A stretch of DNA of 64,000 bases, taken from positions 5,833-69,832 of the forward strand of contig CAZKPU010000001.1 in the NCBI GenBank assembly GCA_964554715.1, in the 5' to 3' direction. Below the pieces are notes generated by a model. It ran no database searches. It saw only the letters and a program-made list of their open reading frames with translations, and was not told the DNA's origin. The stretch is from an uncultured Thermotogae bacterium (GTDB taxonomy: Bacteria > Bipolaricaulota > Bipolaricaulia > UBA7950 > UBA9294). The position numbers and the translations under genes were made by a program. Below are positions 14,440 to 34,428 of this stretch, piece after piece; position 1 is the stretch's first letter; every line of letters begins with the position of its first letter.

Positions 14440-14456
14440 GGTGTCCTGGCTCCTTT

Positions 14457-15331: not shown

Positions 15332-15351
15332 CGTCGCCGGATTGATATCGT

Positions 15352-17235: not shown

Positions 17236-17345
17236 AGCAATCACCTCTGCGCTGCGCGCGGCGGAAGGCTGCATGCGCAACTGCGCCGCCACGCGCGGGT
17301 GCGTTTCTCACATGATGAGAAGGGAGTCTCATTTTGTGGTTGCGC

Positions 17346-18791: not shown

Positions 18792-19657
18792 GTTTTCGTT
18801 ACCAGGAGCAGCTTCGTGCTTGTGCCGATCGGTGTGATGGAGAGAGAGGCCCGACCTACGGCCTGAGAGATCCTGCGGAAGTATTCCTCGTAGACAGCAG
18901 CCATCAACGCCGGTGCGAGCCGGCTTCGAGCGGGAAGCATCCGGAACAGCTTCTTGCCTTCGACCAGATAGGAGTTCGCTCGTCGGAGCTGGAACTCCAG
19001 CATTTCACGCGCCGGGCCGGTGAGGGGGTCCTCCAACAGATCCCGTTCGGACAACCCGAAGCGGACAAGATCCTCTTGGGGCAGGTACACGCGATCGATC
19101 GCGTGGTCCGCGCGGACATCGCGCAGGATGTTGATCAGTTGAAGCGCCAGTCCGAGCGCTTCGCCTTTCTCCCGGAGTTGCTCCCGATGGCAGGGGTAGC
19201 GTCCTTGGGCGAGAATCGGCAGCACAGACAGTCCAACCGCGGACGCAACCAGGGCGCAATACCTTTGAAGCTGCTCGAACGTTCGGTACCGGCTGATCGT
19301 CAGATCCATCTCCACACCATCGATGATGGCGATCAGGTCGTCAAGTTCAATCCCGAAACGTTGGATGGCATCGCCAAGCGCGATGTCGCGGAGTTCGGAG
19401 TCATCGGAATCACGGTTTGCGCAACGGACGAGGCGTTCACGCAGTTTCACAAGCTTCGGTCTCTTTGCCTCGACGGAGGCGTCGCCGTCGGCGATGTCAT
19501 CGGCCTCTCGACAGAACGCATACACGGCACACATGGCGAGCCGTTGCTGTGTTGGCAGAGATCGGATCCCGAGCGCGAAGCTGCTGGATGCGGCCTGCGT
19601 GGCTTGCTCGGCCGCGCGATAGGCATGGAGGATCTGCGGTGAGATGACGTGGGTCAT
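18752..19657 (-). CDS. hpnD: presqualene diphosphate synthase (HpnD)
   Basis: Squalene/phytoene-synthase fold with Asp-rich motifs; its start overlaps the hpnC stop (ATGA). Confidence 0.75.
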   Translation of the reverse strand: MTHVISPQILHAYRAAEQATQAASSSFALGIRSLPTQQRLAMCAVYAFCREADDIADGDASVEAKRPKLVKLRERLVRCANRDSDDSELRDIALGDAIQRFGIELDDLIAIIDGVEMDLTISRYRTFEQLQRYCALVASAVGLSVLPILAQGRYPCHREQLREKGEALGLALQLINILRDVRADHAIDRVYLPQEDLVRFGLSERDLLEDPLTGPAREMLEFQLRRANSYLVEGKKLFRMLPARSRLAPALMAAVYEEYFRRISQAVGRASLSITPIGTSTKLLLVTKTWIGTRCLPTRSS

Positions 19658-20580
19658 GGGTGGCTGAGTAGGCTGAGCAGAAACAGCCTCAGCTTGTCCT
19701 TTCCGCCGACCTCCGGACGGGTGATCAGCGTATCAAAGCCCTGGTCCGAGATCTTCCTGAGGATCGCCTGTCCGCCGCGGCTGAACAGCGCCAGATCGAC
19801 ACGCAGGTGTCCGCGCACATGCCTGACAAGCGGCCATCCTTGCTCGAACAGCGCCTCGGTTCTACCGGCCTCGAACGCCACCAAACGCCGGAGAGAGTCG
19901 GATGCCGCTGCCCGATCAAGATCGCCCTCGCGGACGTTGAAGCGGTCCATATCTTCTTGGGGAAGGTAGATCCTGCCCATGGCACGGTCCCGGCGGATGT
20001 CCTGCCAGAAGTTGGTCAGTTGCAGCGCCGTGCAGGTGGCGTCCGACAGCTGATGGAGCTTCTCATCCCGATAGCCGTACAGGAGGAGGAAGAGGCGTCC
20101 GACCGGGACGGCGGAGAAGCGGCAGTAGCTCAGAAGATCCTCGTAGGTCTCGTAGCGATGGTTGACCTGGTCCAGTCGATTCGCGGTCACAAGATCGATG
20201 AACAGTTGTTCCGGCAGGCAGTAGTCCGCGACGGTCTTCTGCAAGGCGATGAGGATCGGATGGGTCGTGTCTCTCCCGGCGATCGCGTCCCGTAGCATCC
20301 TCTCGAACCGGTCGAGGAGTTCGGTGCGATCCCCCGGAGCCTCGTCGCCAAGATCATCGACCGTGCGGCAGAAGCCGTACAATGCCGCGAGATGCGGTCG
20401 CAGTCGCCGGGGAACCAACCACGAGATGACGGTGAAGTTCTCGTAATGTCTCCCTGCGAGGCGAAGGCATGCGGCCTGGGCTTCCGGCAACGAGACAGCG
20501 GAAGCCGGAGGAGCGATGACGGCAGCAACATGAGGAGCGGGTTCGGACATCGTCCGGGTCTCCGTTTCCGGATCTACCAT
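19654..20580 (-). CDS. hpnC: hydroxysqualene synthase (HpnC)
   Basis: Squalene-synthase-like, 308 aa, paralogous to hpnD. Confidence 0.75.
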   Translation of the reverse strand: MVDPETETRTMSEPAPHVAAVIAPPASAVSLPEAQAACLRLAGRHYENFTVISWLVPRRLRPHLAALYGFCRTVDDLGDEAPGDRTELLDRFERMLRDAIAGRDTTHPILIALQKTVADYCLPEQLFIDLVTANRLDQVNHRYETYEDLLSYCRFSAVPVGRLFLLLYGYRDEKLHQLSDATCTALQLTNFWQDIRRDRAMGRIYLPQEDMDRFNVREGDLDRAAASDSLRRLVAFEAGRTEALFEQGWPLVRHVRGHLRVDLALFSRGGQAILRKISDQGFDTLITRPEVGGKDKLRLFLLSLLSHP

Positions 20581-21029
20581 CCCTGTACCTGCACGATCAC
20601 CTCACGGTCTCGAGGTCGGTCGAGTTCGATGAGGAACAAAGTCTGCCACCGCCCGAGCATTAACTCGCCGTTACAGATCGGGATGGTCTCGCTCGTTGTC
20701 ATCAGCAAGTGCTGACAGTGCGAATGACCGTTCGGGCATTCATCTTCGGTCATGTTCGCAGTTCGTACGGCGAAATCGTTGTGCCGGTACGGTGCTTCTC
20801 TTGGGGCGATCCGTTTTAGGAAGTACGTCATGTCCTGCAGCAACAGGGGCTCGTTCTCGTTGATCTTCACCGCGGCCGTCGTGTGCCGCGAGAAGATGAC
20901 GACGGATCCTTCTTGGATTCCCGAACGCCCGACGATCTCTCTGACGTTGGCCGTGATGTCCATGAATTCGGGCGCCGCTTTCGCTTGACGACGGATCGTC
21001 TCCCGGTGCCCTCGGACCATCGGAGGCAT
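20574..21029 (-). CDS. YjbQ/UPF0047-family protein (secondary thiamine-phosphate-synthase-like)
   Basis: The C-terminus LMLGRWQTLFLIELDRPRDREVIVQVQGW resembles the E. coli YjbQ C-terminus. The start is uncertain (track ORF begins at 21110). Confidence 0.55.
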   Translation of the reverse strand: MPPMVRGHRETIRRQAKAAPEFMDITANVREIVGRSGIQEGSVVIFSRHTTAAVKINENEPLLLQDMTYFLKRIAPREAPYRHNDFAVRTANMTEDECPNGHSHCQHLLMTTSETIPICNGELMLGRWQTLFLIELDRPRDREVIVQVQGW

Positions 21030-21130
21030 CTCCCGATCGTGGTTTTGATCCTGCGCTGTGTCACGGTCTTGAACCGGAACCTGCATCGGATGGGTTGCTT
21101 TCCTGTTCATGAGGTGTTATCAGCACGATC

Positions 21131-22009
21131 TTAGCGATCTGCCTTCCCTCCTTTCGTACAAGATTTCGTCGAGAGCTCGAGTTGCTCCACGACTTCGGCG
21201 ATCACATCATCCGGGGTGGACGCACCGGCGGTAACGCCGATCCGTTCGAAGGTACCGCTGGTAATCTCCTGAAGCTCATCTGCCGATTCGATGTGGTAGG
21301 TCGGGATTCCGGTAGCTCGGCAGGTCTCGGCCAGTTTTCGGGTGTTCGCCGAGGAACGGCTTCCAACCACGATCAGCGCGTCGACTTCCATCGCGAGGTG
21401 CTTCGCCGCGTCGTAGCGGCGCCCGGTTTCCGGACATGTTGTGTTGACGATCCGAATCTCCGGAGTCCTGCCGGCGAATCGGCGCGTCAGTGCCTGAGCA
21501 AACTCTGCGAACAGCTCGGGCTTCTTTGTCGTCTGAGCAATGATGCCGATCCCCTTTGTGCCTTCGGGGACCTCGACATCGGCAGAGACCGTTGCTGCTC
21601 CGCACCCTCTTGTCCATGAGAGGATGCCCTTCACCTCGGGATGATCGGCATCGCCGTAGAGAATGACGTAGAACCCGTCATCGACCAGCTTGGCTGCCGT
21701 TTCCTGCGCCCGACGGACGATCGGACAGGTTGTGTCGACCAACCGAAGACCTCGCTGACGGATTTCGGTATGAACCTCCTCGCCGGCGCCGTGGGCGGTG
21801 ATGGCGACGGTTCCTCCCTCCGGAACCTCATCCAGGGTGGACACCAGGTGCGCCCCCTTGCGAGCGAGGCCGTTGACAACATGCGTGTTGTGGACGATTG
21901 CACCGAGCGTGCACAACGGGCCGTGCTCGGAAAGGTCCGTCTCAATCATATTGACGGCTCTTCGGACGCCGAAACAGAACCCGAAGATGTTCGCGCGAAC
22001 GATGTTCAT
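21131..22009 (-). CDS. ispH: 4-hydroxy-3-methylbut-2-enyl diphosphate reductase
   Basis: Collinear with LytB/IspH (…FGFCFGVRRAV…, …TTCP…, …NTTCPET…). The true start is MNIVRAN at ATG 22009, overlapping the shc stop (ATGA). Confidence 0.85.
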   Translation of the reverse strand: MNIVRANIFGFCFGVRRAVNMIETDLSEHGPLCTLGAIVHNTHVVNGLARKGAHLVSTLDEVPEGGTVAITAHGAGEEVHTEIRQRGLRLVDTTCPIVRRAQETAAKLVDDGFYVILYGDADHPEVKGILSWTRGCGAATVSADVEVPEGTKGIGIIAQTTKKPELFAEFAQALTRRFAGRTPEIRIVNTTCPETGRRYDAAKHLAMEVDALIVVGSRSSANTRKLAETCRATGIPTYHIESADELQEITSGTFERIGVTAGASTPDDVIAEVVEQLELSTKSCTKGGKADR

Positions 22010-23964
22010 ACCGACTCTCCCCCGTTTCTCAAGCTGCGACACTTCTTCTCGTACCGCCCCAGCGCCATCAGAGGGAACACATCGCGATAGATGTGATAGC
22101 GGATCATGAAGTCGGTCGGGAACCCTGTTCCTGTGAACCACGGCTCGTCCCACCCGCCGTCATCGCGCTGCGTGCGGATGAGGTATTCGATCCCGCGCTC
22201 CACCGCCGGATGGTGCACCTCTCCAGCAGCGATCAATCCGAGAAGAGCCCATCCGGTCTGCGATGCAGTTGATGGACCACGGCCGCGATACGTCGGGCCG
22301 TGATAACTCTCCACCCTCTCTCCCCAGCCTCCGTCTTCGTTCTGCCGTTCGAGAAGCCATGACACCGCGCGCCTCACGTACGGTGCCCTCATGTCTTCCC
22401 CCACCGCTTCCAGCGCCGGGAGGACGGTACCGGTTCCGTAGATCAGATTGACGCCCCATCGGCCGTACCAGGCGCCGTCTTCTTCCTGTTGCTGCTTCAG
22501 ATACCGGAGGGCACGTCGGAGAACGGGATGATGCATCGGCCATCCCAGCCGGCCGAGGAACTCGACGATATGACCGGTCACATCGGCGGACGGAGGATCG
22601 ATCATCTCACCGAAGTCGGCGAAGGGGATCTTGCGCGTCCAGGTTTGCGTGTTGTTCCGGTCAAACGCACCCCACCCACCGCCACGGCTCTGCATCCCCA
22701 CCAACCACTCGGTACCGCGGGCAATCGCTTCCCGTTTGCGACCCTCATCCAGTTTCGCCTCGGCAAGAGCCATCATGACCACTGCGGAGTCGTCCGTGTC
22801 CGGATAGATGTCGTTGTCGAACTCGAACGCCCACCCGCCCGGGCGAGCGTTGCAGCGAACCTGCCAATCTCCACCGACAAGGATCTGCTCGCGCAGCAGC
22901 CATTCCCCTGCACGGATCAGAACATCATCATCTTCCGAGACGCCCGCATCCTCCAGCGCCATCATCGCCAATCCGGTATCCCAGACCGGCGAAAGACACG
23001 ACTGCAAGTGGAACGTATCCTCGTCCTCCATCGCGAACCCCTGAGGTCCGTAGAACCCGTCGAGACCCTTCTTGATCACAGGATGATCGAGTTTGTATCC
23101 GAGTTCATGCAGAGCGATCAGCGAGTACACCCACGGGGGCTGGATGCCGCCCCACGACCCATCGGCTTCCTGCCGATCCGCGATCCACCGCTCGGCTCTG
23201 CGAAGCGCCGTCTTCCGAAGAGGTTTGTACGGGAGCCGGTTGTAGAGGCGATAGAGCTTGTCGAACACCACGAACATCCGGCTGATCGGTGTCTTCTTGC
23301 GGTCGGGGACACGATCGTCGGCTCCTTCGCGTCCGTTGACGAACAGCTCGTCGATCGTTGCTTCCCGCGGAAGCGGTACGACCGGTTCCAGAGTTCGGAC
23401 GACGGCCAACGCCCCAACGGTCTGCCTTGCCCAGCATGCGAAGGAGTAGATGTTCACCGGGAAACGGCGCGGCAGAAGGAACAGCTCGATAGGGATCATC
23501 GGCGTTCCCCGCCACGTCCACTCACCCATCATGGCGAACCACATCTTGGTGAAGATGCGCGCGTTCTCCATGCCCCCTTCAGACAAGATGTAGTCTCGAG
23601 CCCGCACCATCTCGGGGGTCTCCACGGGGATGTCGGCCATCTTCAGGGCCAGATACGCTTCGATCGTGGTCGAAAGGTCGGCTGCTCCCTCGAACCAGTT
23701 GCTCCATGTCCCATCTTCCCGTTGCATCTCGAGGATGTAGCGGGCCGCCTTTTTCTGTTCCTTCTTGTCGGAGATCCCGAGGATATGGCGGAGAAAGACG
23801 TGTTCCGCCGTGATGGTGACGTTGGACTCCAGCTCGGCCCACCAGTAACCGTCTTCATGTTGCATCCTGCGAAGATGCTCAATGGCCTGCTCGATCGCGT
23901 GTTGCCGCGCTTGGGCAGCAGATCCCGTTCTCACCGTTGTCGTTGCCGTCTGTTCGATACTCAT
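22006..23964 (-). CDS. shc: squalene-hopene cyclase
   Basis: 652 aa with repeated QW motifs and a DGGWG-type terpene-cyclase signature. Confidence 0.85.
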   Translation of the reverse strand: MSIEQTATTTVRTGSAAQARQHAIEQAIEHLRRMQHEDGYWWAELESNVTITAEHVFLRHILGISDKKEQKKAARYILEMQREDGTWSNWFEGAADLSTTIEAYLALKMADIPVETPEMVRARDYILSEGGMENARIFTKMWFAMMGEWTWRGTPMIPIELFLLPRRFPVNIYSFACWARQTVGALAVVRTLEPVVPLPREATIDELFVNGREGADDRVPDRKKTPISRMFVVFDKLYRLYNRLPYKPLRKTALRRAERWIADRQEADGSWGGIQPPWVYSLIALHELGYKLDHPVIKKGLDGFYGPQGFAMEDEDTFHLQSCLSPVWDTGLAMMALEDAGVSEDDDVLIRAGEWLLREQILVGGDWQVRCNARPGGWAFEFDNDIYPDTDDSAVVMMALAEAKLDEGRKREAIARGTEWLVGMQSRGGGWGAFDRNNTQTWTRKIPFADFGEMIDPPSADVTGHIVEFLGRLGWPMHHPVLRRALRYLKQQQEEDGAWYGRWGVNLIYGTGTVLPALEAVGEDMRAPYVRRAVSWLLERQNEDGGWGERVESYHGPTYRGRGPSTASQTGWALLGLIAAGEVHHPAVERGIEYLIRTQRDDGGWDEPWFTGTGFPTDFMIRYHIYRDVFPLMALGRYEKKCRSLRNGGESV

Positions 23965-25019
23965 GGCTTCGCTTCCCCTGCGGTTTTTCGGATAGTGGAC
24001 ACCATCTGCGCGACAAGATCCCCTTCTGGGACGTTGACGGCAGCGGGTTCTCCGTGGACGTAAATCGTCGCCCGTCCCGGAGCACCGACCATGCCGACAT
24101 CCGCCTCACGTGCCTCCCCGAGTCCGTTGACCACGCAGCCCATCATGGCAACCGTCAACGGAGCATCAAGATCTCGGACCGCCTCTTGCACGCCAAGGGC
24201 GATTTTCTCCAGCGGAATCCCGGTCCGTCCGCACGTCGGACAGACACGGAAGGTGATCCCTCGCTGGCGCAGGCCGAGAGCACGGAGGATGGCATAGGCG
24301 ACCCGCACTTCTTCGACGGGATCGCCGGTCAGGGAGACGCGGACTGTGTCGCCGATCCCCTGTTCGAGCAGCACGCCGAGACCGACGGCCGATCGGATTC
24401 CGCCTTCCCATGCCGTTCCCGCTTCCGTGATCCCGATGTGCAAGGGGTAATCGCGTTCATCGGCCATTCTGCGGTAAGCGGCGACCGTCATCGGAACATC
24501 GGTTCCCTTGAGCGAGACGACGATCTCCGTGAACCCGTGATCTTCGAGAAGACGCACCTGTGCGAGAGCGCTTTCGACCATTCCTTGTGCGGTAGCGCGA
24601 CCGTGCTCATCGAGGAACTCTCGCGCGAGAGACCCGGAGTTGGCCCCGACCCGGATCGGGATCCCAGCGGCGGATGCAGCGTCAACGACTTCCATAACCT
24701 TCTTCGGATCAGTGATATTCCCTGGGTTGAGCCGCAGCTTGTCGACTCCGGCGTGGATCGATGCCAGGGCGATGCGATGATCGAAGTGGATGTCGGCCAC
24801 AAGGGGGATGCTGATCCGCTCACGGATGCCGGGGATCGCGGCCGCTGCGGCCACGTCGGGAACGGCAACGCGGACAAGCTCGCAACCCGCGGCCTCTAAT
24901 CTTCGGATCTGGTTCACGGTGGCATCGATATCGTGAGTGTCCGTATTGGTCATCGACTGGACGATGATCGGAGCCCCCCCACCGATACGAACGCCGCCGA
25001 CAAGGATCTCGCGTGTCAT
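23961..25019 (-). CDS. ispG: 4-hydroxy-3-methylbut-2-enyl diphosphate synthase
   Basis: GcpE-family with the C-terminal CPTCGRT cluster motif. The true start is MTREILVGG at ATG 25019; the track ORF is over-extended. Confidence 0.85.
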   Translation of the reverse strand: MTREILVGGVRIGGGAPIIVQSMTNTDTHDIDATVNQIRRLEAAGCELVRVAVPDVAAAAAIPGIRERISIPLVADIHFDHRIALASIHAGVDKLRLNPGNITDPKKVMEVVDAASAAGIPIRVGANSGSLAREFLDEHGRATAQGMVESALAQVRLLEDHGFTEIVVSLKGTDVPMTVAAYRRMADERDYPLHIGITEAGTAWEGGIRSAVGLGVLLEQGIGDTVRVSLTGDPVEEVRVAYAILRALGLRQRGITFRVCPTCGRTGIPLEKIALGVQEAVRDLDAPLTVAMMGCVVNGLGEAREADVGMVGAPGRATIYVHGEPAAVNVPEGDLVAQMVSTIRKTAGEAKP

Positions 25020-25657
25020 GATTCGACCCCTTGCTCGATTTCTTCCTGGACCAATGCAACAGCACGGCCGATGGTTGCTGCAGCCCGCACGGCGCTTCGA
25101 GCGATGCGCCGGGTCGCGACGGGATGGCAAAACGCTGATCGGACCGGCGAATCTGCGTTGGAGAACGGGAGGTCTTGATCCGCCGAGTCCAGAACGACAC
25201 GGACGATGACCAACTCTCCGCCGTGGCCGGAAACCATCTCGGCCAACGGTCCGCTCTCGGTATCGACGGCGAGCGCGTGTGTCCTTGCCCAAAGCGCGCG
25301 CTTGGCGGCGGGGGTTGAGAAGACATCCGGGCGGTATGCGACGGTGCCGCGCAGGCAGCGGACTCCTCCGCGTTCAAGGCGTTCTGCAATCCGCTCCGCG
25401 AGATGGCTGTTGAGAGGGCGCAGACCCGTCCCGTCTTCGATCGATTCGGCGATGATGACCTCATTCGCCCTTAGGTGGCTGGCGAGCGCACCACAGTATC
25501 CTGTGGAGACGACGGTCGTCGGCTGGACCGTCCGGCCCAAGAAGCCCGCCAAGGTCTTCCCGGCATCTTCTCCCATGCCGGTCTTGACCTTCTCCCAGCC
25601 GCGCCTGCGCGGGATGCGGGAGAGTTCTATGCGCGTGCTTGCCGCCACGACGTTCAT
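25016..25657 (-). CDS. hpnG: hopanoid-associated phosphorylase/nucleosidase (HpnG, PNP/MTAN family)
   Basis: PNP_UDP-like fold. The true start is MNVVAAS at ATG 25657, overlapping the hpnH stop (ATGA). Confidence 0.65.
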   Translation of the reverse strand: MNVVAASTRIELSRIPRRRGWEKVKTGMGEDAGKTLAGFLGRTVQPTTVVSTGYCGALASHLRANEVIIAESIEDGTGLRPLNSHLAERIAERLERGGVRCLRGTVAYRPDVFSTPAAKRALWARTHALAVDTESGPLAEMVSGHGGELVIVRVVLDSADQDLPFSNADSPVRSAFCHPVATRRIARSAVRAAATIGRAVALVQEEIEQGVES

Positions 25658-26658
25658 GATCGGCCTTCCTCCAGCGCAACCTTCAGCAGATCCCACGGCC
25701 TCCGGAACGATGCAAGGATGCTCGCTCCTTCGAACGACGAGTGAATCATGCAGTTCGCGCACCGTTTGTCCTTCCCGGGGCCGTAGCGCTTCCACAACGC
25801 CGGATCCAGGAGTGGATCGATGGAATCCACGTGTTCATCGGCGATCAAATAGCAGGGAAGCCGCCATCCGCGGACCGTGTAGGTGGGCGTGGTCCACGCC
25901 GCGCAGTCGTAGGTGCGGTTACCACGGAGGAACTCGAGATACAGAGGGTTGTTGTAGAACGGCAGCTTCCGTGAGGGATCGAGAACCTCGCGAAATACAC
26001 GGATCGCCTCTTGCCGTTGCAGGAACTGCTCCTGCTCACTGACGTCCTCGTAGGCGTATCCGGCCGAGACCATCAATCCCTCGATCCCGACGTTCTTGAG
26101 CCGGTCGAACGACGCATGAAGGTCTTCGACATCCGAGCCGTGGAAGATCGTCGTATTCGTGTTGACCCGGAACCCGCGGCGGATCGCCTCTTGGATTGCC
26201 GAGAAGGCGGTGTCGTACGAACCCGGACGTCCGGTCACCTGATCGTGAATCTTGGCGGTTCCGTCCATGTGAACGACAAACGCCAGGTACGGTGATGGTT
26301 TGAACAGGTCGAGATTCTCCTCGAGCAACAGCCCGTTCGTGCACAGGAAGATGAACCGCTTGTCTTCCACCAACGCGCGGATCAGTTCATCCAGATGCTC
26401 ATACAGCAGAGGCTCTCCACCGGACACCGAGACGACGGGCGCTCCCGCAGACTGCACGGCAGTCATGGCATCATCGACGGACATCCGTTGATCAAGGACA
26501 TCCTGGTATTCTCGGATGCGTCCGCAGCCCTGACAGCGAAGGTTGCACGCCTCCAACGGTTCGATCATGGTCACGAACGGGAAGTGCGATTGCCGTGACA
26601 GCTTCTTCTTCAGGATGTACCTGGCCATCGTCATATCGAATGTGGCTGGCCTTTTCAT
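25654..26658 (-). CDS. hpnH: adenosylhopane synthase (radical SAM, HpnH)
   Basis: CNLRCQGCG radical-SAM motif. 334 aa. Confidence 0.75.
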   Translation of the reverse strand: MKRPATFDMTMARYILKKKLSRQSHFPFVTMIEPLEACNLRCQGCGRIREYQDVLDQRMSVDDAMTAVQSAGAPVVSVSGGEPLLYEHLDELIRALVEDKRFIFLCTNGLLLEENLDLFKPSPYLAFVVHMDGTAKIHDQVTGRPGSYDTAFSAIQEAIRRGFRVNTNTTIFHGSDVEDLHASFDRLKNVGIEGLMVSAGYAYEDVSEQEQFLQRQEAIRVFREVLDPSRKLPFYNNPLYLEFLRGNRTYDCAAWTTPTYTVRGWRLPCYLIADEHVDSIDPLLDPALWKRYGPGKDKRCANCMIHSSFEGASILASFRRPWDLLKVALEEGRS

Positions 26659-27650
26659 TTGTCTCTCCTTGCCAAGAAGGCCACCAGTTCACGCATCTCA
26701 TCTTTTCCGGACGGATCGAACGGCAGGCTTTCGAGGATGGTTTCTGCTTGTTGTAGGTCGGAGTGTACGTGCACTCCCGATTGCTCCCTTGTGTCGGTTC
26801 GCTGGAGGATATTCATGACGGTGGAAACCTGCTCATCATCGATCGAGCCGCCGGCGTACACGGACGTCAGGGTGGAACGATCCTCCGCGCTGGCGTGCTC
26901 GAACGCATGCGCAATGGGGAACGACTTCTTCCGCCGCCGGATGTCGGAGCCTCTCGGTTTTCCGGTGGTCCCCGGATCCCCCCAGATTCCGAGCATGTCG
27001 TCCCGGATCTGGAATGCACGCCCGACGTGACGTCCGAATGAGACCAGGTCACGTCGTACACCGGCGGGCGCATCGGCACATACGGCCCCCAGTTCGAACG
27101 CGCAGCGAAGAAGGGCGCCGGTCTTACGATCGATCATCTCCAAGTATTCGGCCACATCCACGTGACGTTCCTCGAACGACAGGTCCATGGCTTGTCCTTC
27201 GATCATCGCTGTCGTTGCCCGGTTCAGCACGCTCAGTGCCTCGGTGCCGCTTTCGAGAGCTTCTCCGATGGCCATCGAATGCAGGAGATCGCCGGCGTTG
27301 ATCGCTTGTGCAACGCCGATGCGGCTCCACACGGTGGGACAGCCACGTCGTGTGGGATCCTTGTCCTGGATGTCGTCGTGGATCAGCGAGAAGTTGTGCA
27401 CAAGCTCCAGCGCAACCGCCGCTCGGAGCGCTCGATCGAGCCGCCCGCCCAAGCGTTCGCAGGTGAACAGGACAAGAGATGGGCGGAGCAGTTTCCCCAA
27501 CCGGTTTCTTGATGCACCGTGTTCATCCTCGAGGCCGACGTGGTATCGAAGAACAGGGTGGAGAAGGCTGTCCCCGCACAGGGCGGATCGCAGCGCCTTC
27601 TCGAGAGGCTCGGTGTAACGGCTGAGGAGAAGCGGGGCGTTTGAGGTCAT
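26655..27650 (-). CDS. ispA: polyprenyl diphosphate synthase (FPP/GGPP synthase)
   Basis: DDxxD motifs (LIHDDIQD, FQIRDDMLG). The true start is MTSNAPL at ATG 27650; the 512-aa track ORF carries an Arg-rich spurious extension. Confidence 0.8.
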   Translation of the reverse strand: MTSNAPLLLSRYTEPLEKALRSALCGDSLLHPVLRYHVGLEDEHGASRNRLGKLLRPSLVLFTCERLGGRLDRALRAAVALELVHNFSLIHDDIQDKDPTRRGCPTVWSRIGVAQAINAGDLLHSMAIGEALESGTEALSVLNRATTAMIEGQAMDLSFEERHVDVAEYLEMIDRKTGALLRCAFELGAVCADAPAGVRRDLVSFGRHVGRAFQIRDDMLGIWGDPGTTGKPRGSDIRRRKKSFPIAHAFEHASAEDRSTLTSVYAGGSIDDEQVSTVMNILQRTDTREQSGVHVHSDLQQAETILESLPFDPSGKDEMRELVAFLARRDK

Positions 27651-28291
27651 GTTGTCCTTTCCGGAGGCCGCAAGTCCACGAGGTGCATCCGCTCCGCGAC
27701 GGTGATGAGATCTGCGGCCGTTCCCACACCGAGCTTGCGCATGATTCGAGCGCGGTGATTCCTGACGGTGTGGAGACTGCGCATCATGATGTCGGCGATT
27801 TCCGCGTTCCGTCTTCCTTCGACGATTAGTTGCAGGACTTCTCGTTCTCGTGATGTGAGTGCTCCGACGTTTTCGTTTGCGCTGTCTTCTTGTTGCGCCC
27901 CTTCGACGTTCGGGAACACGCGTTCTCCGCCGGCGACTCTGTGCAACATCTCCAGCATGGTGGCTGCCGGAGTGTCTTTGAAGACGTAGCCGGAGACACC
28001 ACGCTGCCGCGCCTGATTCACGAGCTCCCGGCTGGTGTGCATCGACAGGATGACAATCTTCGTCTCGGGTGAGACTCTGCGGACGTGGCGAATCGCTTCC
28101 AGCCCGTTTAGAAGGGGCATCGAGATATCTACAAGCACGATGTCCGGCTGGTGAACGCGGGTCAGCCGAACGAGCTCGCGCCCGTCTCCGCACACACCGA
28201 CCACGTCAAACGATGCGCTGGCAAGAAGGGTAGAGAGACCCTCTCGCACCAACGCATGATCGTCTGCAAGCACCACCCGAAGCGAACTCAT
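27647..28291 (-). CDS. NarL/LuxR-family response regulator (REC plus HTH)
   Basis: REC domain with the phospho-acceptor Asp in LVDISMP and a LuxR-type HTH. Its stop overlaps the ispA start (ATGA). Confidence 0.8.
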   Translation of the reverse strand: MSSLRVVLADDHALVREGLSTLLASASFDVVGVCGDGRELVRLTRVHQPDIVLVDISMPLLNGLEAIRHVRRVSPETKIVILSMHTSRELVNQARQRGVSGYVFKDTPAATMLEMLHRVAGGERVFPNVEGAQQEDSANENVGALTSREREVLQLIVEGRRNAEIADIMMRSLHTVRNHRARIMRKLGVGTAADLITVAERMHLVDLRPPERTT

Positions 28292-28392
28292 AACCCATTA
28301 TTCTATCGAGGACAACCCGAGCAACCACGGGGTAAATGTATCAATCGTGCGTGCGGCTCTCCGGGCCGTTCGACGAGTCATCTGAGGCGTGC

Positions 28393-29040
28393 TCAGGAAC
28401 CCCGGCATGGCTCGTCATCGGCCATCGACGTTTCGTTGTCGAGCAGCGCTCTTGTGCCGACTCGACGCGCGTGGGCGACCAGCCCGGTCCTCGTACGGAT
28501 ATCGAGTTTGGACATCAACCCTTGAATCCTGTTTTCGACCGACCTCGGGCGAAGGGAAAGGCACTCGGCGATCTCCTCGTTGTCCTTGCCGAGGCACAAG
28601 AGAGAGAGGATCTGACACTCTCGTGGGGTCAGCAGGGTGGAGGGCGGAATCGTCCTGCCGCGGGCCGCCTGCCGAATGGCAGCGCAGAGTTCCTCTCGCG
28701 AGCAGGTCTTGGAGATCAACCCCAGTGCTCCGAGACGCAATGCGCGCTGGGCGATCTCCGGCTCGTCGTACATGGAAAGCATAAGCACCGCTGTGTTCGG
28801 GGAAGCGGAGAGGAACGTCGGAATCGCGTCAAGTCCGTTGCCATCGGATAATGCGATATCCAAGAGCATCACATCGGGGTGCTGGGCCGCGGCAAGACGG
28901 ACACCTGAGGCAAGGTTGTCTGCCGCACCGATCACGGAGAACTCAGGATCGGAACCGAGCAGCAGGTTCAAACCCTGCCGTACGAGTTCATGATCGTCAA
29001 CGATGAGAATGTGGATCGGGCTCATACGGTACCTTGGCAA
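28393..29040 (-). CDS. NarL/LuxR-family response regulator
   Basis: REC domain plus LuxR-type HTH; it overlaps the 3' end of the kinase gene. Confidence 0.8.
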   Translation of the reverse strand: MPRYRMSPIHILIVDDHELVRQGLNLLLGSDPEFSVIGAADNLASGVRLAAAQHPDVMLLDIALSDGNGLDAIPTFLSASPNTAVLMLSMYDEPEIAQRALRLGALGLISKTCSREELCAAIRQAARGRTIPPSTLLTPRECQILSLLCLGKDNEEIAECLSLRPRSVENRIQGLMSKLDIRTRTGLVAHARRVGTRALLDNETSMADDEPCRGS

Positions 29041-30241
29041 TCAGCTCCGTTCCTTCCCCCGGAGATGCATTGATCAGCAAACGTCCGCCAACGGCGTCCA
29101 GCCGCTCGGACGCGCTACGGAGGCCCAGCCCCTGCATGTGTGATGGGTCGAACCCGATGCCGTTGTCTTTGACTTGGACATGAAGCGAGGCGGGGTGCTG
29201 CCGGATGGTGATCGATACTTCGCTTGCATGGGCATGACGGGTGACGTTTCGTAGGGCTTCGGAGATCACCGTGTAGACCAGCCACTCGATTCCCTCGGGC
29301 AAGCGATGCTCGATGTCGATCTCGGTCACGATCCGCAGATCGGTCGCCTCGCCGCTCATCCGCCCCAATTCCCGGATCGCCGGCTCGAGTCCCAGTTCAT
29401 CGAGAAGCGGAGGTCGCAGTGTACGGGTGAGATGACGCGTCTGGCGGATGGCGTGATCCGCAACGGCTTCCAGCTTGCTTCGGTCATCTTGCGAGATCGA
29501 GGGAAGAACGGCTGCATGAAGCTTAATCGCCGCCAGAGATTGACCGACTTCATCGTGAAGCTGTCGAGCGATCCGCCGCCGCTCCTCATCTTGGGCGATA
29601 AGAAGCTGGCGCGAGAGGCGTGCGAGATCAGCCTCTCTGCGTACCAACGCTCGCTGCTTGCTCCAGTAGTATCCGTTGAAGGAGCGCACGGTGTGAGAGA
29701 TGACCACATAGATCGCGAGCGCGCCGGCAAGGATGGTCGGGAGCACGTATCCAAGGCTCCGATAGCCGTTGGGACCAAGCGATGAGAACAACGAACGGTG
29801 GGGAAGCACGCCGAGATACTCCAGAAGGACGAGGCCCGTGTACAGCAGGATCACGGTCGACGTTAGGATGATGCTGTGGCGGTTGGACAAGAAGTAATTG
29901 GCGGTAACAACTGTGGGCATGTAGAAGATGATCCCGATCCACTCCGCACCTCCCATCAGATGAACCAGGATCGTAATGACCATGGCTTCAAGGACGGAGT
30001 AGCTGATGTGTGCCCACTGCAGCTCCCGCTCGTTTTGTTGACGTCGGATGAGGAACGAGAACAGAAACGTTAGCGCGAGCCACGCGAACGGAGAGTAGAA
30101 GAGAGGGTTGAGATAGCTGATGTCGGTGGCAAGGATCACCACCGAAGCAATCACACAGAAGACCGACAGTGTCACCAGACGTGAACGGACCGTTCGTTGA
30201 ACGGACGCGCGCAGCTGCTCCAGAGCCGATTCCGTCGGCAT
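28997..30241 (-). CDS. sensor histidine kinase, HisKA_3 (DesK/NarX-like) with polytopic membrane N-terminus and no periplasmic domain
   Basis: About 6 predicted TM helices in the first 200 aa, then an H-box (LHDEVGQSL) and HATPase_c. Confidence 0.75.
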   Translation of the reverse strand: MPTESALEQLRASVQRTVRSRLVTLSVFCVIASVVILATDISYLNPLFYSPFAWLALTFLFSFLIRRQQNERELQWAHISYSVLEAMVITILVHLMGGAEWIGIIFYMPTVVTANYFLSNRHSIILTSTVILLYTGLVLLEYLGVLPHRSLFSSLGPNGYRSLGYVLPTILAGALAIYVVISHTVRSFNGYYWSKQRALVRREADLARLSRQLLIAQDEERRRIARQLHDEVGQSLAAIKLHAAVLPSISQDDRSKLEAVADHAIRQTRHLTRTLRPPLLDELGLEPAIRELGRMSGEATDLRIVTEIDIEHRLPEGIEWLVYTVISEALRNVTRHAHASEVSITIRQHPASLHVQVKDNGIGFDPSHMQGLGLRSASERLDAVGGRLLINASPGEGTELIAKVPYEPDPHSHR

Positions 30242-30252
30242 GATCTTCGTCC

Positions 30253-30537
30253 TCAGGTGAGCTTCGCGGGAAGGACGATCTGGCCGAAGTTCTTCTCGTA
30301 CCGTTGGATGTTCTCACCGATCGCCTGGTAAAGGCGTTTCATGTGTCCGGGGTTGAGAATCACGCGGGACGTGAGAAACGCCTGGCTTGGCTTGCTTCCC
30401 CCCGCCGGTGTCTGAGGATCGAGGAACAAGAAATCGAGGACGAACTCCTCTTTGCGGTGTGAGATCAGTGCAAGGTTGGCGTACTTGCCTCGTCTTGTCT
30501 CGTTGTCTGCAGCGATCTGCATCTGGCGTTCCGGCAT
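30253..30537 (-). CDS. DUF3467-family protein
   Basis: …EFVLDFLFLDP…GHMKRLYQAIGENIQRYEKNFG matches the DUF3467 C-terminal signature. Start MPERQ with an AAGGGGG SD. Confidence 0.5.
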   Translation of the reverse strand: MPERQMQIAADNETRRGKYANLALISHRKEEFVLDFLFLDPQTPAGGSKPSQAFLTSRVILNPGHMKRLYQAIGENIQRYEKNFGQIVLPAKLT

Positions 30538-30597
30538 ATGGACATACCCCCTTGGTCTAAGGATGATGGTAGCTCCGGGGGGGCGGAACGGCAACGC

Positions 30598-31857
30598 CTA
30601 CGGACGTAGGAAGCGGCGGAAGAACTCCGAAATCGTGGCTGCGTGATGGCCCGGAAGGAGCACGTGGTGATTGCCGAGCGGCGAAAGGAGCAGTTCACTC
30701 ATGTCTTCCTTCATGGTCAAGGAGGCTTGGGTACGGCACTGCCCCTCCATCGGCGTGGTTTCGTGGATCGAACCCTCGCGGATAAACAGCCGATCCAGCC
30801 TCTCGCCACCCAGACGGAAGAGGGTGCAAGGCCCGTCCGGGATCTTCGCGGAGATCCCGACGCCGATCCCGGACTCAAAATGACTGCGGATGACATATCC
30901 CTCGGACAAGGAAAGGGGACACGTGCAGTGGGCGATCAACACACCGCGTTTCGGCACGTCCACGGAGGCGATGTTGCCCATGAATCCGATCCGATCAGTC
31001 AGCAGCGAGCCGAGCAGCAACGAGAACAGGGTTTGCAGGTCTCCTTCGCAGGACGACGGGATGTTCTCATCGTTCAGACGGGACAGGGCGTAGCAGCCTG
31101 TGTTGTGGAGGGCGTCGAGAAGATCGAAACAGCGAACGGTGCAAGCGGTTAGGCGGTTTTCATCGACAAGAGAGCGGAGGGCATGGTAGATCGACACCGC
31201 GCCGCGAACATCTTCCTTTGACGTCTCCTGAGACGCGTCAGCTTGCTTGCTGAACGAAGCCGCTGTCCTGCGATCCGCCTTGGCTTCGCGCGTCCGCTCG
31301 ATCAGCGTCTCGATGGAGATATCGACCAGCTCGATCCCCAGCTTCCCCTTCAGGAACGACCGATCGACACCGCTGGAGACCAGCCACTCGGACGGCTCAC
31401 CGACCAGTCCGATGCGGCTGAAACGGAGCATGTCCCAAGCAGCGGCGATCCTCTGCTCCCGAAGGAGATCGTTGGCCACTTCCGAGGGCGGCCCGAACAG
31501 GATTCTCCCTTCACCTCCGTCTTGACGGATCCGGGCGAGGATCTCGAGCGCTGCCGGGAGGGAGTTCTGAGATCCGTGAGCGATGAGCAGCGCAGGAGAG
31601 GGGAGTTGCGAGAGGATCTTGAGGATCTCCCGCTCCGTTCCGCCGGTCAGAACCAACGTGGCAGCCAACGCGTTTCCGGTCGGGTACTCAACCTCGACAA
31701 CAGGTGCACCCGCGGCTCGCCACTCGGACAACAGCCGCTGCTTCATATCCCTTACGGCTTGCGGGTTGTGCAATCCGGATGCTCGCACAACGACTTCGAT
31801 GTTCTCCATGAGGGATAGGGTAGCTTGTCCCACCAAGCTGGTGGACTCATGAGTCAT
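30598..31857 (-). CDS. L-fucose/L-arabinose isomerase-family protein (COG2407-like)
   Basis: CEGDLQTLFSLLLGSLLT matches the catalytic-core motif of FucI-like proteins; ~419 aa. Confidence 0.45.
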   Translation of the reverse strand: MTHESTSLVGQATLSLMENIEVVVRASGLHNPQAVRDMKQRLLSEWRAAGAPVVEVEYPTGNALAATLVLTGGTEREILKILSQLPSPALLIAHGSQNSLPAALEILARIRQDGGEGRILFGPPSEVANDLLREQRIAAAWDMLRFSRIGLVGEPSEWLVSSGVDRSFLKGKLGIELVDISIETLIERTREAKADRRTAASFSKQADASQETSKEDVRGAVSIYHALRSLVDENRLTACTVRCFDLLDALHNTGCYALSRLNDENIPSSCEGDLQTLFSLLLGSLLTDRIGFMGNIASVDVPKRGVLIAHCTCPLSLSEGYVIRSHFESGIGVGISAKIPDGPCTLFRLGGERLDRLFIREGSIHETTPMEGQCRTQASLTMKEDMSELLLSPLGNHHVLLPGHHAATISEFFRRFLRP

Positions 31858-31992
31858 CTAAATAGCAGGACATGGATCACCTTTTCAGGCGCACGAGGTG
31901 TGAAGGAGGGTACGCGTGTGCAGGGATGGCCTGCGAAGTGACGGATGACGAGACGGCAAGGTATACTCCAGCGAGCCGATCAAGGGGGTGCG

Positions 31993-33051
31993 ATGGGGTT
32001 TCTGAGCGAGTTGTGGTATGGCAACGAGATCTGGAAATGGTTGCTTGCCGTGGCGGTCGTTGTCCTTGTTGCTGCGTTCTTTTGGATTGCCGTCCGCTTG
32101 CTTCTCCGCCGTTTGTCCAAGATTGCCGCGCAGACGTCAACGCGGTTCGATGATCTTGTCCTCAAGCTTCTCGAGCGGACGAAGCTCCTCTTCCTGATCG
32201 TCGGGGCTGTGTATGCCGGATCGCTGGTTGTGAAGCTTCCCGATGTGGCGGATCGGGTGTTGAGGGTATTTTCCGTCTTAGCATTGCTTTTCCAGGCAGG
32301 ATACTGGGGAAACGCTCTCATCTCTTATTGGATCGACCGCTCGATCAGGGATCGGCTGTCGTCCGATGCGCGGAAGGCGACATCGCTTTCCGCGATCGGG
32401 TTTGTGGCGAAGGTCGTTGTCTGGTCTGTGGTCATCCTGATCGGGCTGGACAACATCGGTGTGGACATCACTGCATTGATCGCCGGCCTTGGCGTCACGG
32501 GGATCGCTATCTCGCTTGCCGTACAGAATATCCTGGGAGATCTGTTTGCTTCTCTGTCGATCGTTATTGACAAACCGTTCGAGATCGACGATTTCGTTGT
32601 GGTCGGAGAGCTTTCCGGAACGGTGGAGAAGATCGGCCTCAAGTCGACGCGTGTTCGAAGCCTGTCGGGCGAACAGCTCATCTTCGGCAATAGCGATCTG
32701 TTGTCCAGCAGGATCAAGAACTACAAGCGGATGGACGAACGACGGATCGTCTTCAGCTTGGGAGTCGCCTATGAAACACCGAAAGAGAAGCTTGAGGCGA
32801 TCCCGGAGATGATCGCCGAGATCGTCGAGCGCCGTGAAAACACGCGGTTTGACCGCTGCCACTTCAAGAGCTACGGGGACTTCGCGCTTCTATTCGAGAC
32901 GGTGTACTTCATGCTCATCCCCGACTACGCAGCGTACATGGATGCGCAACAGGCGATCAACCTTGAGATCCATGAGAGGTTCGATGCTGCCGGAATCGAG
33001 TTTGCCTATCCGACGCAGACCATCCGCCTGGAGAACAGCCCTCGGTCATAA
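31993..33051 (+). CDS. mechanosensitive ion channel (MscS family)
   Basis: N-terminal TM helices followed by the MscS beta-domain (…ISLAVQNILGDLFASLSIVIDKPFEIDDFV…); AAGGGGG SD. Confidence 0.8.
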   Translation: MGFLSELWYGNEIWKWLLAVAVVVLVAAFFWIAVRLLLRRLSKIAAQTSTRFDDLVLKLLERTKLLFLIVGAVYAGSLVVKLPDVADRVLRVFSVLALLFQAGYWGNALISYWIDRSIRDRLSSDARKATSLSAIGFVAKVVVWSVVILIGLDNIGVDITALIAGLGVTGIAISLAVQNILGDLFASLSIVIDKPFEIDDFVVVGELSGTVEKIGLKSTRVRSLSGEQLIFGNSDLLSSRIKNYKRMDERRIVFSLGVAYETPKEKLEAIPEMIAEIVERRENTRFDRCHFKSYGDFALLFETVYFMLIPDYAAYMDAQQAINLEIHERFDAAGIEFAYPTQTIRLENSPRS

Positions 33052-33098: not shown

Positions 33099-34319
33099 CT
33101 AAAGGAGCAGCCAACCGGCGACAACGGTCAACCCCCATCCGATCGCCACGGGAACAGCGATTCGACGGAGAAACGCACTGATCGATGTGTGGAAGTACTC
33201 GACCGACACCGAGATGCACGGGTGGACCGGGGTGAGGATGTAGCCGAGGAACACGGCGGTGTACGTGACGGCGAACGCGATCATCCCCATCGCTCCATAG
33301 GTGCTGACGAAGATCGGAATCAGGATGGCCATCGGCGCTTGGATCCGGCCGGTGACGGCGCCGAGCAAAAACCCGACAACGACACACAGGAGAACCGGAT
33401 GGAGCGACATGTCGGCAATCGCCTCGGGGATTCCGGAACTCTGGAACACGGCCAAGAACAGAAACATCGCCAGGATGATGAGCGCGTACTTCCACGGACG
33501 CATACGCCGAAACACGGTCCTCAGGGTGGCTCGCTGCGTCCGCCCGACAACAGCAGAGATCACAAGGCTCACCGAAATCCCGATCGCCGTTCCGATCTCC
33601 GCGTAGGGAAGCGAGCAGGTCATCGCCAGCGTCAGATCGAGGATCGGGGCGATGAGGATCAGCATCAGCGGGATGAGGAGCCCTTTCCAAGAGAAGGGAT
33701 CGCGACCGTCTCCATCGGATCCGTCGTTGCTCCCCGGAAGCGTCCCAGCGGGGCCTTCCGCTCGACGCAACAGAAACACCACGCCTAACAGCGCGATGAT
33801 CAGGCACGACGGCACCATGAACGGAATGACACGATAGACGCTGAGGCCGGCTGCCTTGGACGAGGCGATCAAGGCGGAGCCAAGCGGATAGACCAGAAGC
33901 AGCACGTGCCGGAACCAAACGTTGGCCGATGCCTTGATATCGTTGGGTACATGCCCTGCACCCCGTTCAACAAGGGGTGCAGACAGCAAGGCGCCGCCGG
34001 GCATCGGAAGCATGCCGAGGAGCGCGGGAGCAAACGCCAGGAACGGACGAACGCCGATCCGCAGGTTCGAGACGAGCCGATCCATCTGCCCGGACTCCTC
34101 GAGGACGCCGCCGATCATCGGAATCAGAGCGACGACCCACGCTAGAAGCCACACCGAAGGGTCTGCTGCCGTGGAAGCAAGGGCGCTTACGATCTGGCGG
34201 CCGGACAAGGAGAACGCCGCGAGCACGACGGCAGCGACGAACATCCCAAGGGCGAGGTTGCGGCGCGAGAGGACAAGCAGTAGAACGATAGAGAGCGAGA
34301 ACCCGATCCATGTGCCCAT
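33099..34319 (-). CDS. polytopic membrane transporter (DUF401/ArsB-NhaD-like permease superfamily)
   Basis: About 10-12 TM helices. Start MGTWIGF with an AGGAGG SD. Confidence 0.5.
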   Translation of the reverse strand: MGTWIGFSLSIVLLLVLSRRNLALGMFVAAVVLAAFSLSGRQIVSALASTAADPSVWLLAWVVALIPMIGGVLEESGQMDRLVSNLRIGVRPFLAFAPALLGMLPMPGGALLSAPLVERGAGHVPNDIKASANVWFRHVLLLVYPLGSALIASSKAAGLSVYRVIPFMVPSCLIIALLGVVFLLRRAEGPAGTLPGSNDGSDGDGRDPFSWKGLLIPLMLILIAPILDLTLAMTCSLPYAEIGTAIGISVSLVISAVVGRTQRATLRTVFRRMRPWKYALIILAMFLFLAVFQSSGIPEAIADMSLHPVLLCVVVGFLLGAVTGRIQAPMAILIPIFVSTYGAMGMIAFAVTYTAVFLGYILTPVHPCISVSVEYFHTSISAFLRRIAVPVAIGWGLTVVAGWLLL

Positions 34320-34428
34320 GTGACCTCCTGTGTTGATCAGGCAGGTTTCGATGGAACAGGGTACAGGGCCGGAGCGATTCATGCACAGCAAGGAGACTCG
34401 ACGAACCTTGGAAAGAGGAGCTGACAAG

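Follow-up and report, generated by a model that had tools for sequence, protein, structure and literature searches.

Hopanoid synthesis in the candidate phylum Bipolaricaulota is probably controlled by a conserved, dedicated module with two promoters

The window, which is the whole 64,000-nucleotide stretch of DNA analysed, encoded a sensor kinase, two response regulators, and a hopanoid operon. Re-examination of the sequence confirmed that the genes described for this locus were all present, and all were on the minus strand, as are the features below. The histidine kinase HK (28997–30241, 414 aa) was composed of a six-transmembrane (6TM) sensor, a signalling helix, a HisKA_3 DHp domain carrying H229, and a HATPase_c domain. 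Downstream of it lay two NarL/GerE-type response regulators, RR1 (28393–29025) and RR2 (27647–28291), each with a REC and a GerE domain. Upstream of it a 94-aa DUF3467 protein was encoded (30253–30537), for which PF11950 was recorded in the homologous loci.

A polyprenyl diphosphate synthase, probably an FPP synthase (26655–27650; Pfam 216.7 bits), was the opening gene of a 10-gene hopanoid/isoprenoid operon, or 11 genes if RR2 is counted. The side-chain genes came next: HpnH, an adenosyl-hopene transferase of the radical SAM type (25654–26658), scored above its cutoff (TIGR03470, 402.8 bits vs. 225.05), and the HpnG-like nucleoside phosphorylase (25016–25657) scored below (best profile TIGR03468, 93.2 bits vs. 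187.1; Pfam PNP_UDP_1). IspG (23961–25019; NF001540, 459.5 bits, cutoff 345), squalene-hopene cyclase (22006–23964; TIGR01507, 824.7 bits, cutoff 431.1), IspH (21131–22009; TIGR00216, 253 bits, cutoff 188), and an operon-internal YjbQ/UPF0047 protein (20574–21110) followed. The set for squalene synthesis closed the operon. Its HpnC squalene synthase (19654–20580; TIGR03464, 307.9 bits, cutoff 250.45) and the final gene, HpnE hydroxysqualene dehydroxylase (17409–18791; TIGR03467, 362.4 bits, cutoff 283.05), exceeded their cutoffs, and the HpnD-like presqualene diphosphate synthase (18752–19657) stayed below that of its best profile (TIGR03465, 219.3 bits, cutoff 278.6).

HK is a member of the HisKA_3 sensor histidine kinases (DesK/NarX/LiaS/UhpB class), with matches to HisKA_3 (PF07730) over residues 220–279 and to HATPase_c (PF02518) of 42.6 and 47.7 bits against cutoffs of 24 and 26.4, respectively. 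H229 lies within an LHDE motif and was invariant across 36 orthologues. The sequence-only reading had described about six TM helices and no periplasmic domain, and this description held. Hydropathy and the AlphaFold2 model agreed on helices at about 22–40, 45–65, 77–96, 100–118, 122–145, and 162–184, and since the longest inter-helix loop has about 16 residues, there is no room for a periplasmic domain. The search of HK detected neither an extracytoplasmic nor a cytoplasmic sensor domain, and no HAMP or PAS domain between TM6 and DHp. In the AlphaFold2 model (mean pLDDT 74.8), residues 163–245 formed one continuous helix running from TM6 through the linker into DHp helix 1. The model superposed on the catalytic domains of VraS and DesK with TM-scores of 0.83–0.88 (normalised to the target), the DesK catalytic core being the closest solved structure in the PDB.

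RR1 and RR2 are NarL/FixJ-type response regulators with a REC domain and a GerE/LuxR helix-turn-helix. RR1 scored 86.4 bits for PF00072 and 46.0 bits for PF00196 (cutoff 23.5); for RR2 these values were 90.5 bits and 60.3 bits. Their phospho-acceptor residues were complete, with D10, D11, D56, and K106 of RR1 (62 orthologues) and D10, D11, D55, and K105 of RR2 (53 orthologues) invariant or at least 90% conserved. The helix-turn-helix was better conserved in RR2 than in RR1. Translational linkage of HK to an RR1 spanning 28393–29040 had been proposed earlier. The overlap was real and measured 29 nt, from the RR1 start to the HK stop at 28997, but the start itself had to be moved: the open frame has its first TTG at 29040, and the homologues share the ATG at 29025. 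The overlap was 26, 29, or 32 nt long in 61 of the 64 related loci compared. The second regulator had been read as an orphan placed after a 101-nt gap and fused by overlap to the first hopanoid gene. Both the 101-nt gap between the RR1 stop and the RR2 ATG and the overlap were found, the RR2 stop sharing the sequence ATGA (27650–27647) with the synthase start. However, RR2 was as constant in the cluster as RR1 and is therefore not an orphan in the evolutionary sense. In 25 of the 46 loci compared, RR2 and the synthase gene overlapped by 4 nt; the remaining junctions were small overlaps or gaps of up to 32 nt.

For the comparison we used 83 non-duplicate homologous loci, with kinase TM domains 41–94% identical. 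The order HK–RR1–RR2–hopanoid genes was intact in every Bipolaricaulota locus long enough to judge. RR1, RR2, and the synthase were present in all 41 loci with at least 2.6 kb of downstream sequence, squalene-hopene cyclase in all 31 loci with at least 6.5 kb, and YjbQ in every locus reaching its position. The order was retained even in an outlier with 42% kinase identity (L173); a 34%-identical homologue (L172) was solitary, without regulators or hopanoid genes. Some parts of the locus varied. DUF3467 and unk419 were absent from one clade and ispG from some loci; the surroundings also differed, with MscS flanking some loci on one side and rhodanese/HTH genes flanking another, the MscS mechanosensitive channel gene being a frequent divergent neighbour. 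A functional link between the kinase system and the hopanoid genes, as first proposed from the sequence, thus gained strong comparative support from the invariant order, but the architecture fails to show that fluidity or thickness is the signal.

Co-location of this kind could also arise without control, if the two-component system merely travelled with the hopanoid genes, or shared their transcript, and acted on other targets. The comparative nature of the evidence leaves room for this reading: the loci all belong to a single phylum and so lack independence, and inheritance could account for some of the conservation. Against it, the order and the tight coupling were maintained down to about 42–50% kinase identity while the flanks rearranged, and in every locus examined RR2 was placed as the first cistron of the predicted hopanoid transcript, within about 30 nt of the synthase. 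Further evidence on both sides came from the promoters.

Two conserved promoter regions were present. The first, P1, lies upstream of DUF3467 and is by its motifs a predicted ordinary sigma-70-type promoter. Its −35 hexamer TTGCCG (30589–30594) belongs to a TTGyCn motif placed 17 nt upstream of the −10 hexamer TACCAT (30566–30571), which is followed by the Shine-Dalgarno-like AAGGGGGT. About 50 distinct loci shared TTGyCn upstream of DUF3467, with gCTACCAT (or TACGAT) at a fixed distance and GGAGGTG-type ribosome-binding sites next in the homologues. The DUF3467 gene lay ahead of the kinase gene in 55 of the 73 loci compared; in the clade without it, most loci had the P1 motif in front of the kinase. 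DUF3467 orthologues were 71–98% identical, and no other protein encoded at the locus was as well conserved.

The second promoter, P2, was located in the gap between RR1 and RR2. The spacer 28292–28392 had been singled out before as a binding region for RR1, and the choice proved apt, as it contains a conserved, apparently activator-type promoter with an operator-like element. This 22-nt element (GATTGATACATTTACCCCGTGGTT; 28323–28346, about −54 to −31) had the consensus aATTrrTaCnttTTCCCCaTTtC over 60 distinct loci and was followed by a 19-nt unconserved spacer, a TAnAAT −10 hexamer, and then 6–9 nt to the RR2 ATG, a distance departed from in one or two loci. In the window the hexamer is TAGAAT (28300–28305), 8 nt upstream of the ATG. 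Across 59 aligned loci, in which the best match was chosen as anchor, the T, A, and final T of TAnAAT were invariant. In the same 59 loci, the element and the −10 hexamer had an information content of up to 2 bits, and the spacer did not exceed about 0.3 bits. The element was kept also in loci where the RR1 stop codon lies outside it, and in a scan of 944 kb, position weight matrix (PWM) scores of 20 or more occurred at the P2 position alone. Neither a −35 match nor a ribosome-binding site was found in the aligned loci. P2 was also absent from the calls of the sigma-70 consensus scan, as expected of an activator-dependent promoter. These features fit an activator-dependent (class II-like) sigma-70 promoter in which the element abuts the −35 position.

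A promoter lacking a −35 hexamer needs an activator, and two helix-turn-helix regulators are encoded on either side of P2, which argues against mere co-location. The element itself is asymmetric and to our knowledge resembles no NarL-family site, so a factor other than RR1 or RR2 could bind it, or it could serve promoter strength. In addition, the PWM scan found no second copy near P1 or the kinase genes, and HK therefore shows no sign of classical autoregulation. Weighing these points, we regard co-location without control as quite improbable. We consider it probable, from the comparative sequence evidence, that the locus forms a module with two promoters that is dedicated to regulating hopanoid synthesis and is conserved throughout the Bipolaricaulota, a candidate phylum.

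In the proposed circuit, P1 would express DUF3467, HK, and RR1. P2 would produce a transcript with RR2 and the ten tightly packed genes from the polyprenyl synthase through HpnE. Judged from the spacing, this transcript would start at, or a few bases from, the RR2 ATG and would then be leaderless. The 6TM domain of HK would read an intramembrane cue, which would travel down the continuous TM6–DHp helix, and HK would set the phosphorylation state of RR1. We infer that a phosphorylated NarL-type regulator binds the P2 element, recruits RNA polymerase, and turns on hopanoid synthesis. RR2 made from the regulated transcript may act as feedback, either occupying the P2 element itself or competing for HK. 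The cue would most likely be the hopanoid sufficiency of the membrane, perceived as lipid packing or order, or as a hopanoid or another isoprenoid lipid itself.

Which of these cues HK reads would depend on its 6TM domain. A DesK-like mechanism would have the six helices measure bilayer thickness or fluidity, for instance after a temperature shift, with the kinase/phosphatase balance tuning hopanoids until membrane order is restored. Such physical sensing is suggested by the polytopic kinase without an outside domain, by TM6 running into DHp, and by the NarL-type partners. An output lipid that orders the membrane would be a logical counterpart of the desaturase controlled by DesK, and the frequent mechanosensitive channel gene next door would also suit it. 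The nearest solved structure points to DesK too, but that match is confined to the catalytic core common to all HisKA_3 kinases. Homology of the TM domain to that of DesK found no support: hhalign of profile A2, built from the TM domain, against the N-terminal region of a provisional DesK sequence gave a probability of 0.8% with no TM alignment. The parallel with DesK drawn in the sequence-only reading is therefore sound for the polytopic architecture, the TM6–DHp helix, the NarL-type partners, and the lipid-modifying target, and finds no support in the sensor sequence.

The TM domain was also as conserved as the DHp domain (0.73 vs. 0.72). Polar residues within the membrane (N45, H78, E85, N115, E141, and H148) were invariant in the HK orthologues, and N45-P46, H78, and N115 were so solely in the hopanoid-linked ones; the GGxxWxG and LLEyG..PH core was common to the whole superfamily. 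A domain this conserved, with buried polar residues and multiple outputs, exceeds the needs of a hydrophobic ruler, and we consider DesK-like physical sensing unlikely. Given the conservation of the TM domain and its invariant intramembrane polar residues, a specific ligand or partner fits at least as well as sensing of the bulk bilayer. The 6TM domain may thus bind a membrane lipid (hopanoid, squalene, or another isoprenoid) or a membrane protein and act as a product-feedback homeostat, with a logic similar to eukaryotic sterol sensing. DUF3467, which is extremely conserved and opens the kinase unit, could have an accessory role.

Profile searches gave this reading some further support. By its similarity, the HK sensor appears to be a widespread, modular PilS-like 6TM domain scoring just under the gathering cutoff of PF25323 (22.7 bits with full-length HK, 25.2 bits with its isolated TM domain, cutoff 27). 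PF25323 matched 7 of 16 HK orthologues at E < 1 (best E 8.9e-6), and a distant carrier of the same TM domain (P0139) exceeded the cutoff with 28.1 bits. A domain profile search recovered 594 cluster representatives with the HK-type 6TM domain, fused elsewhere to HisKA kinases, PAS, GGDEF, adenylate cyclase, and SpoIIE outputs. The RegB family, whose TM domain binds ubiquinone (PMC3000548), gave a very weak, non-significant match over the HK TM region in 2 of 16 members (NCBIfam, E 0.03–0.1). However, the PilS and RegB similarities both fall under the family thresholds, a binding site is not definable from sequence, and the outgroup proteins with this domain occur in unrelated gene contexts. 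Ligand sensing with product feedback is thus possible but doubtful. A more specific form, in which the 6TM domain directly binds a hopanoid or precursor and the system is a lipid homeostat that measures and sets membrane hopanoid, with DUF3467 as accessory and RR2 as feedback arm, seems unlikely to us. If true, such a homeostat would do in prokaryotes, by means of a two-component system, what sterol sensing does in eukaryotes. The open literature searched contained no description of the HK–RR1–RR2–hopanoid wiring, and for hopanoids, the bacterial sterol-like lipids, the locus would be the first good candidate for a dedicated control circuit.

Among known systems, DesK–DesR of Bacillus subtilis senses membrane thickness or fluidity and controls the des desaturase. 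Like it, the present system pairs a HisKA_3 polytopic kinase lacking an extracytoplasmic domain, the last TM helix of which enters DHp, with a NarL/GerE regulator, and its output genes alter the physical properties of the membrane. DesK has five TM helices, and HK has six with no detectable TM-domain similarity; there are two regulators here instead of one, and the predicted target is an 11-gene operon headed by RR2 that yields a hopanoid instead of an unsaturated acyl chain. PilS, a HisKA kinase that works with an NtrC-type partner, senses pilin, a membrane-embedded protein. The PilS-like domain (PF25323) shares with HK the six TM helices, the short loops, and the position N-terminal to signalling outputs; HK differs in its sub-cutoff PF25323 score, its HisKA_3 output with NarL-type regulators, and its hopanoid context. 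RegB/PrrB is a 6TM redox kinase in which ubiquinone is bound via a GG-containing TM3–TM4 loop (PMC3000548), i.e., an isoprenoid lipid is sensed within the membrane. It resembles HK in its six TM helices, the lack of a periplasmic domain, and a GG motif in the short TM3–TM4 loop, but the motif is GGxxNPF in RegB and GGxxWxG in HK, and RegB, a HisKA kinase, carries a redox-active cysteine. Two-component control of hopanoid genes has a precedent in BesRS of Burkholderia thailandensis, as its regulon includes a hopanoid operon, with a putative regulator box at the 5′ end (PMC9426598). BesRS is a global envelope-stress system that responds to envelope disturbance, and the hopanoid operon is one of its many targets (PMC9426598). 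It is encoded outside the hopanoid cluster, whereas the Bipolaricaulota system lies within the operon itself and seems to serve it alone.

The kinase HK (414 aa; 28997–30241, minus strand) carried HisKA_3 and HATPase_c domains, both above the Pfam cutoffs. Its N-terminal 185 residues consisted of six hydrophobic helices joined by loops no longer than ~16 residues, and no periplasmic, HAMP, or PAS domain was found in the protein. In the AlphaFold2 model (mean pLDDT 74.8), residues 163–245 formed a single continuous helix running from TM6 through the linker into the DHp helix with H229. Two response regulators followed, each with REC and GerE domains and intact phospho-acceptor residues. RR1 was given an ATG start at 29025 (minus strand), which overlaps the HK stop by 29 nt and replaced the TTG at 29040 proposed in the sequence-only reading. 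RR2 (27647–28291, minus strand) came after a 101-nt gap, and its stop overlapped the start of the polyprenyl diphosphate synthase gene (ATGA). The layout described in that reading, a kinase and two regulators before the hopanoid operon, was borne out by the minus-strand gene run, the domains, and the overlaps. RR1 and RR2 shared just 31% identity. Helix-turn-helix conservation was 0.77 for RR2 versus 0.65 for RR1, with most invariant residues being family-wide.

After the polyprenyl synthase, the operon contained HpnH, an HpnG-like phosphorylase, IspG, squalene-hopene cyclase (SHC), IspH, YjbQ/UPF0047, HpnC, an HpnD-like protein, and HpnE, in that order. Most junctions downstream of the synthase showed 4-nt overlaps, and the majority of these genes scored above NCBIfam equivalog cutoffs. 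The YjbQ/UPF0047 gene (20574–21110, minus strand), located between IspH and HpnC, was present in every related locus reaching that far. A 117-nt gap follows HpnE, and beyond it lie unrelated central-metabolism genes. Those directly downstream (9990–17292, minus strand) encode aconitase, isocitrate dehydrogenase, and a two-subunit ATP-citrate lyase, a block suggestive of a reductive TCA cycle module. Scanning the window for Rfam families and tRNAs gave no hits.

Exact look-up of the window HK sequence returned no record. Full-length HK homologues showed 44–95% identity, and every named one belonged to Candidatus Bipolaricaulota/Acetothermia. On four annotated contigs, with HK 79%, 50%, 46%, and 46% identical to that of the window, the gene order was the same in all: kinase, RR, RR, polyprenyl synthase, HpnH, phosphorylase, IspG, SHC, IspH, YjbQ, two SQS_PSY genes, and amine oxidase. 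A contig scan with whole HK and H-box plus G-box patterns found only generic HisKA_3 kinases of at most 39% identity, with nearly all matches confined to the cytoplasmic/catalytic part, and was set aside as uninformative. A scan of metagenomes with only the TM domain as seed gave 80 additional loci (41–94% identical), whose gene content was scored by tblastn with the window proteins. RR1, RR2, and the synthase were found in order in all 41 loci extending 2.6 kb or more downstream, and SHC in 31/31 loci extending 6.5 kb or more. Even a 42%-identity homologue (L173) retained the arrangement.

The flanks of the cluster varied while this order stayed constant, so we regard HK-RR-RR-hopanoid as the conserved core. 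DUF3467 was detected in 55 of 73 loci, and unk419, which encodes a 419-aa protein and immediately precedes the sensor unit, in 38 of 55; one clade lacked both. In some loci ispG was absent from the cluster. An MscS-type mechanosensitive channel gene (31945–33051, plus strand) is divergent from the cluster, and past it lies a gene for a DUF401 membrane protein (33099–34427, minus strand). Many related loci had the channel at the same place (L001, L005, L006, L087, and others), though not all; it was replaced in L003. At locus L172 (1112–2365), a HisKA_3 homologue of 34% identity that shares the 6TM domain was solitary: neither a response regulator nor a hopanoid gene lay within 3 kb of it. It is thus membership of the orthologous group, rather than the domain architecture itself, that goes with the hopanoid linkage.

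The unk419 gene (30598–31857, minus strand) showed no Pfam match and no PDB sequence match. Its product is distant kin of sugar aldose-ketose isomerases, with NCBIfam matches to sulfoquinovose isomerase SftI (E 7.7e-18) and L-arabinose isomerase (E 0.002), both far under the cutoffs. Because HpnH and HpnG make ribosylhopane, a role of unk419 in hopanoid side-chain processing is conceivable.

Two conserved promoters were observed. P1 was ordinary, with TTGyCn (−35, 30594–30589, minus strand), 17 nt, TACCAT (−10, 30571–30566, minus strand), and then GGAGGTG. It was conserved immediately before DUF3467; in the DUF3467-less clade, most loci had it immediately before the kinase. P2, located in the RR1-RR2 gap, was delineated by aligning the DNA ahead of the RR2 start from 60 distinct loci. 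Its −10 (28305–28300, minus strand), TAnAAT, was invariant and stood 6–9 nt before the RR2 ATG, with one or two loci excepted. No −35-like hexamer was present in P2, and a consensus scan did not call the site. No ribosome-binding site precedes RR2, and a transcript from P2 would therefore have little or no leader. The geometry recurs at two further window genes (starts at 5862 and 52346, both plus strand), which have TAnnnT 9 nt ahead of the ATG and lack a ribosome-binding site, so this genome seems to use leaderless-type starts at other places too. With two conserved promoters, the locus can be divided into a sensor unit (DUF3467-HK-RR1) and, after it, a regulated output unit made up of RR2 and the hopanoid genes.

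Upstream of the P2 −10 we observed a conserved operator-like element, aATTrrTaCnttTTCCCCaTTtC, at about −54 to −31 (28346–28323, minus strand). The 19 nt between the element and the −10 were essentially unconserved (at most ~0.3 bits). In loci with a long spacer the element persisted, there clear of the RR1 stop codon. Its weight matrix scored 20 or more at this position only, in 944 kb of loci plus the window. A search for a second copy near P1, near unk419, and over the rest of the window and of 83 loci gave nothing above noise. The element has some likeness to a sigma-54 site (TTAGCACG..CCCC against TGGCACG..TTGC), a reading rejected by inspection, as the invariant GG and GC are missing; NarL-type regulators without an AAA+ domain also disfavour it. 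Likewise, CCCCATTT looks like a sigma-32 −10, but this reading was rejected on inspection too: no conserved −35 stood 13–17 nt upstream, and the invariant TAnAAT would be left without explanation. In one relative (L088, 2537–2705; L089, 1738–1906) the RR1-RR2 spacer was lengthened to 168 nt by ~3 tandem copies of a ~23-nt unit (CTGCTTCGTGCAGTTGTGATCAA) upstream of the element, and the promoter was intact.

The best PDB match of HK was the DesK catalytic core, which only places HK in the HisKA_3 class. Foldseek of the HK model against the PDB matched the catalytic core alone and found no solved analogue of the TM domain. No homology to the DesK TM region was detected, as a DesK query sequence gave no alignment to the TM domain. 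The TM domain matched Pfam 6TM_PilS sub-threshold in 7/16 orthologues (best E 8.9e-6). Its match to RegB was insignificant and too weak for a claim of RegB-type homology. A TM-domain profile collected 594 cluster representatives at E<1e-3, of which 17 alone, at E<1e-30, form the orthologous group. Distant carriers ended in HisKA kinases, PAS, GGDEF, adenylate cyclase, SpoIIE, or almost nothing, and those that could be placed had unrelated gene contexts. The TM domain is therefore a modular membrane sensor domain. In L167 (510–971 and 3244–4341), a GGDEF protein with the same 6TM domain (30% identity to the window's TM domain) lay 2.3 kb from a sterol-carrier-like SCP2 gene, a single case on a short contig.

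Residues conserved across the whole superfamily were T90, G97-G98-x-x-W101-x-G103, Y107, and L140-E141...P147-H148, whereas N45-P46, H78, and N115 were invariant in the hopanoid-linked orthologues only. Conservation across orthologues was 0.73 for the TM domain, versus 0.72 for DHp and 0.60 for the ATPase domain.

Taken together, the comparative data support a dedicated regulatory link between the two-component system and hopanoid synthesis, with the control point probably located at P2. In the proposed circuit, an intramembrane cue would set the kinase/phosphatase balance of HK. Phosphorylated RR1, the kinase-coupled regulator, and/or RR2 would then bind the element and activate the −35-less P2, and RR2, as the first product of P2, would supply feedback. 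The cue might be bilayer order or thickness, as in a DesK-like reading, or a specific lipid, e.g., a hopanoid or a precursor. Given the strong TM conservation and the buried polar residues, we slightly favour a specific interaction.

Hopanoids, the bacterial equivalent of sterols, have left behind the most abundant molecular fossils, yet almost nothing is known of how cells set their amount. The present locus offers a compact candidate control circuit inside the operon, conserved across a whole phylum. With a candidate operator of 24 bp and a defined promoter, the signal setting hopanoid synthesis becomes directly testable. The locus also places a widespread but uncharacterised 6TM sensor domain in a functional setting for the first time. 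Full hopanoid pathways are hereby documented in Bipolaricaulota, an anaerobic, deep-branching lineage not discussed in the hopanoid literature searched.

Our searches of the open literature turned up neither a dedicated hopanoid two-component system nor an account of hopanoid genes in Bipolaricaulota. The hpnP gene is reportedly regulated by a stress sigma factor. The nearest precedent is BesRS of B. thailandensis, whose global envelope-stress regulon includes a hopanoid operon (PMC9426598). The present circuit shares its logic with DesK-DesR and departs from it in the sensor domain, the doubling of the regulator, and the target.
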